From an uncultured Trueperaceae bacterium (GTDB taxonomy: Bacteria > Deinococcota > Deinococci > Deinococcales > Trueperaceae), in the NCBI GenBank assembly GCA_963815215.1, contig CAWFFU010000008.1, positions 32,001 to 96,000 on the forward strand: DNA of 64,000 bases, written 5' to 3'. The notes below the pieces were generated by a model, which had not been told where the DNA came from, did no database searches, and saw nothing but the letters and a program-made list of their open reading frames with translations. A program made the position numbers and the translations under genes. Below, piece after piece: positions 46,160 to 64,000 of this stretch (its first letter is position 1; every line of letters starts with the position of its first letter).

Positions 46160-46224
46160 GCGGGCGTCGTGGCGGGCGTCGTAGCGGGCGTCGCGGCGGG
46201 CGTCGCGGCGGGCGTCGCGGCGGG
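46160..46224. repeat. 12-bp tandem repeat (GCGGGCGTCGYR), about 5.4 copies
   Basis: directly visible, just downstream of recA stop. Confidence 0.9.
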
Positions 46225-46256: not shown

Positions 46257-47333
46257 TCAGGCCTCCAGCGCGGCGTCCTCCCCCGCGTCGCCGGAGCCGA
46301 CCTCCTCGACGTCGTAGGCGGAGGCGTGGTGCACCTGCTTGCCGAGCTGGAGCTCGGCCATGACGCGTTCTCGGATCTCCCCGAGGACGTCCGGGTTCTG
46401 GCTCAGGAACTCAACCGTCTTCTCCTTGCCCTGCCCCAACCGCGTCTCCCCGAACGAGTACCACGACCCCGACTTCTGCACCACCTCCACATCACTCGCC
46501 ACATTCACCAGATCCCCCACCCGATCGATCCCCCGACCGAACATGATCTCCACCTCCGCCTCCCGAAAAGGCGGCGCCACCTTGTTCTTCGTCACCTTCA
46601 CCCGCACGCGGTTCCCCACCTTCTCCGCGCCCACCTTCACATCCCCCTTACGCCGCACCTCCATACGCACACTCGCATAGAACTTCAACGCCCGCCCCCC
46701 CGGCGTCACCTCCGGATTGCCGTACAACACCCCGATCTTCTCCCGCACCTGATTGATGAAAATCGCCGTCGACCGACTCTTCGACAACACCGCCGTCAAC
46801 TTCCGCAACGCCTGACTCATCAACCGCGCCTGCAACCCCACATGCGCGTCCCCCATCTCACCCTCGAGCTCCGCGCGCGGCGTCAACGCCGCCACACTAT
46901 CGATCACCACCACATCCACCGCGCCCGACCGCACCAACAACTCCACGATCTCCAACGCCTGCTCCCCCGAATCCGGCTGGCTCACCAACAACTGCTCGAT
47001 ATCCACCCCCAACGCCCGCGCATACGACGGATCCAACGCATGCTCCGCATCCACGAACGCCGCCACACCCCCCGCCGCCTGCGCCTCCGCCACCACATGC
47101 AACGCCAACGTCGTCTTCCCCCCAGCCTCAGGCCCATACACCTCCACCACCCGACCCCGAGGCACACCCCCCACCCCCAACGCCAGATCCACCGACAACG
47201 ACCCCGTCGAAATCACACCCGCCCCCAACAACCGAACCTGCTCCTCCCCCAAACGCATCACCGCGCCCTTACCAAACTGACGCTCGATCTGCGAGATAGC
47301 AGTATCCAGGGCCTTCCTACGCTGCTCGTCCAT
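46257..47333 (-). CDS. recA: recombinase RecA
   Basis: [61 protein letters not shown]. Confidence 0.98.
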
Positions 47334-47347
47334 GGTGATGCTCCCTC

Positions 47348-47423
47348 CGTGCCGGCGACTCGTGCCGCCGACTCGTGCCGCCGACTCGTGCCGGCGACTC
47401 GTGCCGCCGGACCCGTGCCGCCG
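47348..47423. repeat. 13-bp tandem repeat (CGTGCCGSCGACT), about 5.8 copies, in recA 5' UTR
   Basis: directly visible between recA promoter and RBS (GGAGGGAG). Confidence 0.9.
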
Positions 47424-47476
47424 CGCGTCGTCGGCGCGCGGGCGCAGCGGCTACGGCGGCGCCCGTCCGCGGAATA

Positions 47477-47512
47477 CCTTAAATACTAAGGGTTCGGAAG
47501 GGGTGTTGGCAA
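47477..47512 (-). promoter_or_regulatory. recA promoter with palindrome CCTTA-N5-TAAGG over the -10
   Basis: TTGCCA (47512-47507)-18 bp-TAGTAT (47488-47483); inverted repeat at 47477-47491. Confidence 0.7.
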
Positions 47513-62360: not shown

Positions 62361-64000
62361 ATGCGCTCCGTCCGGAATACTGCCCTGGCGCTGTTGGGGC
62401 CCGCACTGCTGTCCCTCGCGGGCTGCGGGCTCTTCCAGACGTCGAATCAGCTCTCAGTCTCGCCCTCCAGCGTGACCCTCGACAGCTCCACGTCCCAGGC
62501 CGTCGTCACGCTCAGCAACACCAGCAACGCCTCGACCTCCTGGACCGCCACGTCGTCGGACACTCACGCGTCCGTGAGCCCGGCCCAGGGCACGCTCGCG
62601 GCCGGGAGCAGCACCTCAATAACGGTCTCGGTCGATAGCAACGGGCTCAGCCAGGGCCAGACGATCACGCCGACGGTCACCTTCGATTCCGGCGTCGGCA
62701 CGGCCACCCTCGACGTGAGCTTCACCATGACAGCCGGCAGCCTGGTCCAGTGCGGGACAGATCCCGTCGACGCTGTCGCTGGGGTCGATCGCAGGCAGCG
62801 CGACGGCGACCTGACGCCGCGCCCGATAGCGCACCCCACGGCGATCGCGCCCGACGGCCGGAGCTACGTCCCCGGCGAGGTGCTGGTGAGCTACAACGCG
62901 GCGGCCGCGCCCCAGAGCGCGGGCGGCGCGGCCGCCACGCTGCGGCAGCTCTCGGCCGACGTGCGCTCGAGCTACGGGCTCCAGCTGGTGCGGGCGGGCG
63001 CGCCGGGCGCGCCCGATCTGGTGCGGGCGAGCGACGCGGTGGCGGCGCTGGCTCGCCTGCGCGCCGACCCGCGCGTGAGCGCGGCGCAGCTCAACTACTA
63101 CCTGAAGCCGATGGCGTTCACGCCCAACGACACCTACTACGGCCAGCAGTGGAACCTGCAGGAGTTCGGCCTGGAGCAGGCCTGGAGCACCGAGACCGGC
63201 GCCAGCCACCGGACCGTCCTCGCGGTGATCGACACCGGCGTGCAGATGAACCACCCCGACCTGCAGGCCAAGATCGTCGGCGGCTGCGACTTCTACTCCG
63301 GCGACAACGACCCCACACCCGGCCCCGGCATCGACCACGGCACGCACGTGGCCGGCATCGCCGCCGCCATCGGCAACAACAACCTGGGCGTGGCGGGCGT
63401 CGCCTTCGGTCCGCAGGTCATGATCGAGCCCATCAAGGTCTTCGACGATGCCGGCGGCGGCGCCACCACCAGCATCCTGATCGACGCCATCCGTTGGGCC
63501 GCCGGCCTGGCGGTGAGCGGCACCGCCACCAACCCCAACCCCGCCGACGTCATCAACATGAGCATCGGCGTCGACGGCGACCAGCCGCTGATCGACCAGG
63601 CCGCCACCGCCGCCTTCAACGCGGGTTCGCTGCTGGTGGCGTCGTCGGGCAACTACGGAACCGGCGCGCCGTTCCCCACCAACCCCGGCGTGCTGAGCCC
63701 CGCCAACGCGCCAGCCGTCATCGCCGTCGGCTCGGTCGACAGCGACCACCACATCTCCGGCTTCTCGGCCTACAGCACCGGCGCCGGTTACGCCACGGGC
63801 GTCGAGGTGATGGCGCCGGGCGGCTTCGAGGTGTCGAGCAGCTACCCCGGCAACGCCTGCCTCTACCACTACTACACCACCACGTCATCGGACTACGGCG
63901 TCCTCAGCACCTACACCGGCAGCAACTACGGTTGCGATGTCGGCACCTCGATGGCGTCACCGTTCGTCGCCGGCGTGGCGGCGCTGCTCAAGAGCCACAC
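62361..64000 (+). CDS. lipoprotein S8 subtilase with N-terminal BACON/Ig-like domain (runs off window)
   Basis: read by eye: MRSVRNTALALLGPALLSLAGC lipobox; VIDTG, DHGTHVAG and GTSMASP catalytic motifs; TATAGT -10 sits 6 nt before ATG; no stop in window. Confidence 0.9.
   Translation, partial: MRSVRNTALALLGPALLSLAGCGLFQTSNQLSVSPSSVTLDSSTSQAVVTLSNTSNASTSWTATSSDTHASVSPAQGTLAAGSSTSITVSVDSNGLSQGQTITPTVTFDSGVGTATLDVSFTMTAGSLVQCGTDPVDAVAGVDRRQRDGDLTPRPIAHPTAIAPDGRSYVPGEVLVSYNAAAAPQSAGGAAATLRQLSADVRSSYGLQLVRAGAPGAPDLVRASDAVAALARLRADPRVSAAQLNYYLKPMAFTPNDTYYGQQWNLQEFGLEQAWSTETGASHRTVLAVIDTGVQMNHPDLQAKIVGGCDFYSGDNDPTPGPGIDHGTHVAGIAAAIGNNNLGVAGVAFGPQVMIEPIKVFDDAGGGATTSILIDAIRWAAGLAVSGTATNPNPADVINMSIGVDGDQPLIDQAATAAFNAGSLLVASSGNYGTGAPFPTNPGVLSPANAPAVIAVGSVDSDHHISGFSAYSTGAGYATGVEVMAPGGFEVSSSYPGNACLYHYYTTTSSDYGVLSTYTGSNYGCDVGTSMASPFVAGVAALLKSH

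Follow-up and report, generated by a model that had tools for sequence, protein, structure and literature searches.

The stretch of DNA analysed here (64,000 nt, referred to as the window) belongs to a 3.32-Mb genome that is assembled in 14 contigs and 97% complete (G000), and it carries a recA gene, paralogue A, whose parts and immediate surroundings are collected in Table 1. In a profile search, the window copy scored 537 bits and a second copy in the same genome, paralogue B, 538 bits against the RecA equivalog TIGR02012, for which the cut-off is 325. Both copies match the profile over its full length in an intact frame free of stop codons, and both are predicted to belong to the RecA recombinases. 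Tandem repeats of 12-bp and 13-bp units flank the window recA on both sides, outside the coding region. An antisense ORF at 46326..47489 is open because recA has close to no A at third codon positions; it was rejected as a gene, its translation being a low-complexity run of H, P, R and L. In the metatranscriptome X15, part of korA was covered and nothing on recA.

Table 1. Features of the recA locus, in positions of the window
Feature	Position	Strand	Description
recA paralogue A	46257..47333	-	358 aa; between E1beta gene and korA; TIGR02012 match
Putative gene-conversion tract	46383..47330	-	948 bp, codons 2-317, 100% identical to paralogue B
Keto-skewed tract	46410..47333	-	Codons 1 to ~308; third positions nearly all G/T
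Copy-specific C-terminal tail, acidic	46257..46382	-	Ordinary C-ending codons; paralogue B tail shorter, different
Tandem repeat, 13-bp unit, 5.8 copies	47348..47423	.	Leader of paralogue A
Tandem repeat, 12-bp unit, 5.4 copies	46160..46224	.	Directly past recA stop codon
Promoter-like site, TTGCCA - 18 nt - TAGTAT	47483..47512	-	Upstream of paralogue A; consensus match alone

The extreme G/T skew at third positions of the recA core, to which a preliminary description of the locus had drawn attention, is confirmed. Third positions of the core are ~78% G, 15% T, 7% C and 0% A (G 247, C 59, T 50 and A 2-3 for the whole gene), with 0-3 C per 20-codon bin from codon 21 to codon 300. Synonymous C is avoided as described, with TTG 23 vs CTG 3, GAT 12 vs GAC 2, CAT 3 vs CAC 0 and GTG 42 vs GTC 0; the exceptions are ATC (9) and TTC (5), which are kept. 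The plus strand of the tract is rich in C and A, and the hand count of 32 C and 8 G at 47161-47220 proved exact on recount. Over 46421-47310 the plus strand holds C 431, A 189, G 142 and T 128, and its GC skew of -0.504 is the lowest of 1263 overlapping 890-bp windows along the 64 kb (mean -0.039, sd 0.062). Across the genome, mean GC skew over 33,091 windows of 600 bp is -0.005 (sd 0.071), and the 77 that exceed an absolute value of 0.3 merge into 11 regions. For the 2395 ORFs that a simple GC3 rule delimits, mean G3 skew is -0.105 (sd 0.122); the recA copies, at 0.61 and 0.64, hold ranks 3-4 behind the two tuf copies at 0.87 and 0.85. When ORFs of at least 200 codons are taken (n=1979), just seven exceed 0.3 on the positive side, and the negative side declines smoothly. 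It had also been claimed that the tail of the gene and its minus-strand neighbours are ordinary, and both points hold: C and G return to third positions from about codon 308, and G3 skew is -0.21 in korB, -0.19 in korA, -0.01 in the E1beta gene and -0.05 in the E1alpha gene. Keto content by codon position in recA is 0.90 at the third (K3), 0.65 at the first (K1) and 0.53 at the second (K2), and in skewed lineages it is raised by ~0.1 at first and by ~0.02-0.04 at second positions.

A second recA, identical to the first over the skewed tract, had been predicted, and a self-BLAST of the genome found it as paralogue B at G000:C3:872310-873389, between cinA and rny. The run of 100% identity covers the skewed tract and lies in a wider alignment of 983 bp at 99.4%, and the paralogues diverge outside the core, at the start, in the upstream DNA and in the C-terminal tail. 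Codon usage that is atypical and sharply bounded could also mean that the core came from a foreign recA by horizontal transfer, or that the assembly is chimeric. The junctions of the shared core are, however, present in independent metagenome contigs: those of three runs from separate studies stop at the core borders (one contig is 950 nt), and others run from position 47333 into the upstream flank of copy B or, in X2, into the flank of the window type. The two junctions are thus found independently of the G000 assembly and the locus is not a chimera, as the preliminary description had allowed it might be. The complete genomes G020 and G012, moreover, have two recA copies each. Transfer is at odds with the distribution of the skew as well, as a G3 skew of at least 0.5 was found in 15 of 36 recA loci, those 15 all being of the same family (genus g1, G019, G020 and G015), the other 21 ranging from -0.57 to 0.18. 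In a set of 80 recA loci drawn from many phyla, a K3 of at least 0.79 is reached by just two, both titled Trueperaceae. Identity between recA genes declines with taxonomic distance, and both gene contexts occur in three genera. We regard transfer or chimerism as largely refuted and scarcely credible as the origin of the core.

Among the 41 related genomes compared, both recA copies are fully assembled in G000, G003, G019, G020 and G012; many of the fragmented assemblies break within recA. The orders E1beta-recA-korA and cinA-recA-rny are both present in the first four, which represent three genera of Trueperaceae, so the duplication of recA is older than those genera; in G012 the second copy lies in another context. 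Within each of the five genomes, the two copies match without a difference over 930-982 bp (942-972 bp in G012); orthologues differ by 8-32%, and by 8-19% in the three genera with both contexts. As the paralogues are identical within genomes and the orthologues have diverged, long-term gene conversion is indicated, and it appears to be gene conversion that maintains the identity of the copies. The onset of the skew coincides with the onset of identity, at codon 2 in G000, codon 16 in G003 and G019 and codon 10 in G020. At the other end, all four genomes lose the skew at around codon 308, before identity gives out at codons 317-336. Between G000 and G003, silent sites have diverged by 0.095 in the core of recA vs 0.25-0.26 in flanking genes, a reduction to be expected if a strong bias had reached equilibrium, and equally if silent sites were under constraint.

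The skewed tract is not confined to recA. A duplicated tuf with the same skew had been named in advance as a telling observation, and it is present in stronger form: the copies at G000:C3:568993-570189 and G000:C3:825736-826932 match perfectly over 1224 bp, their third positions comprising G 267, T 121, C 11 and A 0. We considered whether selection on mRNA or translation could account for both genes, through a codon bias for stress conditions, a less structured, C-poor mRNA or the avoidance of A/C ribonuclease sites. A role under stress or at high expression is plausible for both recA and tuf, the skew is kept over several genera, silent-site divergence is reduced, and trinucleotides composed of A and C only number 10 in the 918-nt core vs 11 in the 159-nt tail of recA. 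Within one mRNA, however, the copy-specific head and tail are unskewed, and fusA, rpsJ and rplC, which adjoin tuf, have a G3 skew of about -0.1. The 30 ORFs that follow in the G3 ranking are not of an expression type, and expression level was rejected as a cause, there being no gradient among the top-skew ORFs. The codons chosen in tuf go against the habit of the genome, with TTT 11 vs TTC 0 (TTC 99% genome-wide), ATT 18 vs ATC 2 (ATC 97.5%) and TTG 24 vs CTG 1 (TTG 7%); TTT and TTC are decoded by the same tRNA, as are ATT and ATC. Avoidance of toxin sites was likewise rejected, since third-position C is shunned also in contexts where no A/C-only trinucleotide could form. Selection of this kind is in our judgement very unlikely to be the source of the skew. 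The data support neither an expression effect nor translational selection, and likewise neither horizontal transfer nor an assembly error.

The extent of the tuf skew varies greatly among relatives. G3 skew is 0.85-0.96 in genus g1, G019 and G020, 0.3-0.6 in G014, G017, G030, G011 and Thermus-like genomes, and negative in G012, G016, G021, G026/G034 and 37 of 38 sampled Deinococcus-like genomes, the one exception among the latter being G082 at +0.10. All 11 tuf pairs that were aligned are identical or nearly so, regardless of skew. In G012 the identical tuf pair accompanies a recA pair with an identical run, and neither is skewed. In G017 the tuf copies (L053, L190) are identical over the whole gene and the 3' half alone is skewed, with G and T, mostly T, at third positions; the skew there appears to be a mosaic within a putative conversion tract. 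These observations bear on a further explanation, raised in part already in the preliminary description, namely that selection favours G/T richness in the strand, which would serve RecA better as a substrate or be of lower complexity, so that conversion is more frequent and the copies stay uniform. RecA prefers GT-rich DNA in vitro, the skew coincides with the exchanged tracts, and silent-site divergence is reduced in the recA core. A skew that raises conversion frequency is also the second hypothesis put forward in the discussion of PMC8256042. Against it, the tuf pairs of G012, G026 and the Deinococcus-like G033 stay identical or near-identical with no positive skew, so skew is unneeded for homogenisation. 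A single-copy ABC ATPase gene gains skew, and an allele that raises its own initiation should presumably be converted away rather than spread. We consider selection for a RecA substrate unlikely.

Skew had been expected to be rare in single-copy genes, which is borne out in that two further ORFs of the 2395 exceed a G3 skew of 0.4. The single-copy ABC ATPase gene at G000:C3:748365-749147 has a value of 0.52, and its orthologues are graded from -0.08 to 0.53 within the genus (nine species) and lie between -0.23 and 0.16 in other genera. The single-copy DUF4357 gene at G000:C11:187603-188418 (L038), with a G3 skew of 0.43, is sixth-highest and sits in an island of restriction-modification type. 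On the lineage of G000 and G008, 43 derived changes in the ABC ATPase gene could be polarised: C>T accounts for 21, C>G for 17, G>C for 3, and G>A and C>A for 1 each. Coding-strand C was lost in 39 of the 43, and 39 of the 43 are silent. The 43 changes fall in 783 columns, vs 39 in 1800 and 50 in 1581 columns of the flanks, so that the gene has changed at ~2-2.5x the flank rate; in the upstream flank the changes are balanced. From this spectrum it follows that a local, directional force strips C from the coding strand by both transitions and transversions, and a conversion-like or mutational bias would fit better than plain deamination or weak codon selection.

The ABC ATPase spectrum also bears on the cytosine loss that the preliminary description inferred for the tract. 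The change is not plainly one of C to T, as four-fold sites are far more often G than T and C>G (17) is nearly as common as C>T (21). A related explanation is that deamination of an exposed strand during transcription or replication acted alone, recombination being uninvolved. It has in its favour that C and A are lost and G and T gained, as in mitochondrial single-strand gradients. On the vertebrate mitochondrial heavy strand, which is long single-stranded, C and A are lost and T and G gained at silent sites, and one strand does the same here; unlike in that system, G rather than T dominates the four-fold sites, C>G is frequent, and the tracts are ~1 kb and gene-bounded. The sign of the skew matches that of the local replication skew in 10 of the 11 high-skew regions, but we rejected a replication-strand rule, as the C/A-coded regions among them, the frameshifted epimerase described below excepted, are ORFs within the continuous negative tail of the skew distribution. 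Paralogue B of recA has a sign opposite to its replichore, as inferred from the layout of G020, and skew is lacking both in the tail encoded on the transcript of the core and in neighbours that are co-transcribed or highly expressed. Deamination alone is very improbable indeed as an explanation. The tracts do not resemble fungal RIP either, in which C-to-T transitions degrade both repeat copies and drive them apart: here the copies are identical and intact, and the changes are silent and include C>G.

The properties of the two gene pairs correspond to those of GRINS, which are defined in PMC8256042 (Nivina et al., 2021) as duplicated segments of >500 bp with >80% identity between copies and with mean absolute GC skew and TA skew each >0.15 in 150-nt windows. 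We computed the skews in 150-nt windows with a step of 30, which gives 27 windows for recA. Against a genome background of 0.084 for GC and 0.145 for TA, the recA pair (948 bp, 100% identity) has means of 0.505 and 0.221 with r 0.36, the TA value exceeding the GRINS threshold and the background by a modest margin, and the tuf pair (1224 bp, 100%), which likewise passes all the thresholds, has 0.516 and 0.218 with r 0.51. A typical GRINS trait that is not a formal criterion, correlated GC and TA skews with an effect strongest at third codon positions, is present too. Gene conversion between the copies is a further criterion, and comparison of the recA sequences suggests that it takes place. The recA pair is a GRINS by every published criterion and a new example, in a housekeeping gene. 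The words recA, tuf and elongation factor do not occur in the main text of PMC8256042, and our literature searches, which for the GRINS paper covered the main text, found no description of a skewed recA or tuf. The GRINS described there share with recA and tuf the long near-identical repeats within a genome, gene conversion, positively correlated GC and TA skews, the predominance of third positions, a shift towards residues such as Gly and Val, and proteins that still function (here as predicted from sequence). They differ in being polyketide synthase modules or transposases rather than two dispersed housekeeping genes, in having alternating skew where here it is uniformly positive on the coding strand, and in being recent and cluster-specific where here the skew is kept with the gene pair in three genera. 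The mechanism of GRINS is stated in PMC8256042 as not known, and skewed single-copy regions are also mentioned there.

For tuf, part of this behaviour is familiar. PMC6053082 places tuf of Deinococcus-Thermus among concertedly evolving genes and, as here, describes dispersed essential copies that are identical within a genome and diverged between orthologues; recA does not occur among its 19 bacterial genes, and the word skew is absent from it. For recA, bacteria with multiple copies offer a comparison. More than one recA per genome is found in Myxococcus xanthus, Bacillus megaterium and Deinococcus deserti, with paralogues that are diverged or plasmid-borne; unlike in those bacteria, the cores here are identical and just the ends differ. 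Concerted evolution of tufA and tufB by gene conversion is reportedly the subject of PMC5485169.

We favour, with a probability of about 60%, the reading that the tract in the window belongs to a GRINS-type repeat, present in two copies that undergo gene conversion, in which the bias is made by recombination. Two recA genes have been carried since before the three Trueperaceae genera split, cinA-recA-rny being the ancestral context and E1beta-recA-korA, in the window, that of the other copy. As the sequences indicate, recombination between the copies holds a core of ~930-980 bp identical within each genome, whereas the opening codons, the regulatory tail at the C terminus and the promoters remain copy-specific. 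Within the exchanged core, a directional, strand-specific substitution bias has cleared the coding strand of C and A at almost every silent site and shifted some amino acids as well. We infer that this bias comes from DNA transactions associated with recombination, in which either the strand that is repeatedly single-stranded may be damaged or miscopied, or heteroduplex mismatches may be processed asymmetrically, which would amount to biased gene conversion. A lineage-specific factor would be required besides gene conversion, and selection on mRNA is in our view not the source. That the tail within the recA transcript is unskewed counts for a link to recombination. Counted against it are the unskewed identical duplicates, the half-skewed tuf of G017, the skewed single-copy ABC ATPase (0.52) and DUF4357 (0.43) genes, the end of the skew at about codon 308 inside the identity, and the low silent divergence in the core. 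The part of the preliminary description that proposed gene conversion with a second recA therefore stands in that the copy exists and is identical over the skew, and falls short in that conversion does not suffice alone, as the identical or near-identical, unskewed pairs of G012 and G033 indicate. From G012 and the other unskewed identical duplicates, the G017 mosaic and the stop at codon 308 we conclude that conversion is associated with the skew but insufficient for it.

The lineage-specific factor could conceivably lie in mismatch repair. In the 97%-complete genome G000, a domain search found no MutS_I, MutL_C or DNA_mis_repair domain, and MutS domain I and MutL were likewise not found in nine other genomes of the genus; a single weak MutS_V match in G000 is of the MutS2 type. 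NucS is present at G000:C4:54170-54487, and within the family NucS and MutS1/MutL occupy complementary sets of genomes. The seven of 41 relatives in which tuf has a G3 skew of at least 0.85 all have NucS, with no MutS1-type match or MutL found. According to PMC4838380 and PMC6159521, the endonuclease NucS/EndoMS acts on G/T, G/G and T/T mismatches and leaves A/C, C/C and A/A uncut, and NucS is reported to lower homeologous recombination in M. smegmatis. The two poles of the skew, G+T and A+C, match this split in NucS/EndoMS substrates. Filtering of heteroduplexes by NucS might result in a biased gene conversion whose direction depends on polarity and which pushes exchanged tracts towards G/T on one strand: transfers making keto-keto mismatches would be aborted and amino-amino ones would pass. 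If this were true, the extent to which a GRINS can develop would depend on the kind of mismatch repair present. We hold it to be quite unlikely. In 17 of 23 further Thermus-like genomes, with NucS absent and MutL present, tuf has a G3 skew of 0.46-0.58 that is distinct from its flanks; in Deinococcus-like genomes the median tuf skew does not differ between 15 with NucS (-0.34) and 23 lacking it (-0.33); G097 has NucS, no MutL was found in it, and its tuf skew is only 0.12. These counterexamples, from which it follows that NucS-only status is neither necessary nor sufficient, led us to reject NucS-only or MutSL status as the cause; NucS-only repair at most modulates the skew, and the link is weakly supported, the relatives counted here being non-independent samples. 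In G026/G034 neither NucS nor MutL was found, and tuf skew is -0.48/-0.49. Endonuclease V showed no link to the skew, being present in one of 25 genomes of the family (G012; G000 is among the 25) and in 8 of 8 from families f3 and f4. No paper treating NucS and GRINS together was found in the literature searched.

So far, work on GRINS has centred on polyketide synthase genes, which are huge and change so fast that orthology is difficult to trace. Because recA and tuf are universal, slow-evolving and single-domain, they can be compared across unskewed, intermediate and saturated lineages and across repair systems, and the ABC ATPase gene, caught in the act of acquiring skew, reveals the direction and spectrum of the process. 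Both recA and tuf are phylogenetic markers, and in these lineages their silent sites break standard substitution models. The clade also encodes two predicted RecA isoforms with identical cores and different C-terminal tails and promoters.

Several other regions of the genome were noted in passing. At G000:C14:80800-81200 (L041) the GC skew falls to -0.92, in ORFs with no Pfam match. At G000:C3:836272-837800 (L037), a gene for an SQD1-like epimerase is followed by one for a GT4 glycosyltransferase, with the skew mirrored, third positions being ~80% C and 10% A; the Epimerase Pfam matches are split over two frames, which may reflect a frameshift, a pseudogene or an assembly error. A subtilisin-like secreted protease gene at 62435-64000 of the window (G000:C8:94435-96170) has a paralogous segment at G000:C9:64133-65862, 1.7 kb long, 96.8% identical and free of marked skew; this pair and a Crp pair were rejected as GRINS because they fall below the thresholds. 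The NHL-repeat lipoprotein genes at G000:C3:631398-632930 and G000:C4:141093-142623, which are 89% identical over 1538 bp, exceed the GRINS thresholds with mean absolute skews of 0.218 for GC and 0.239 for TA, the skew being negative, that is, C/A-rich.
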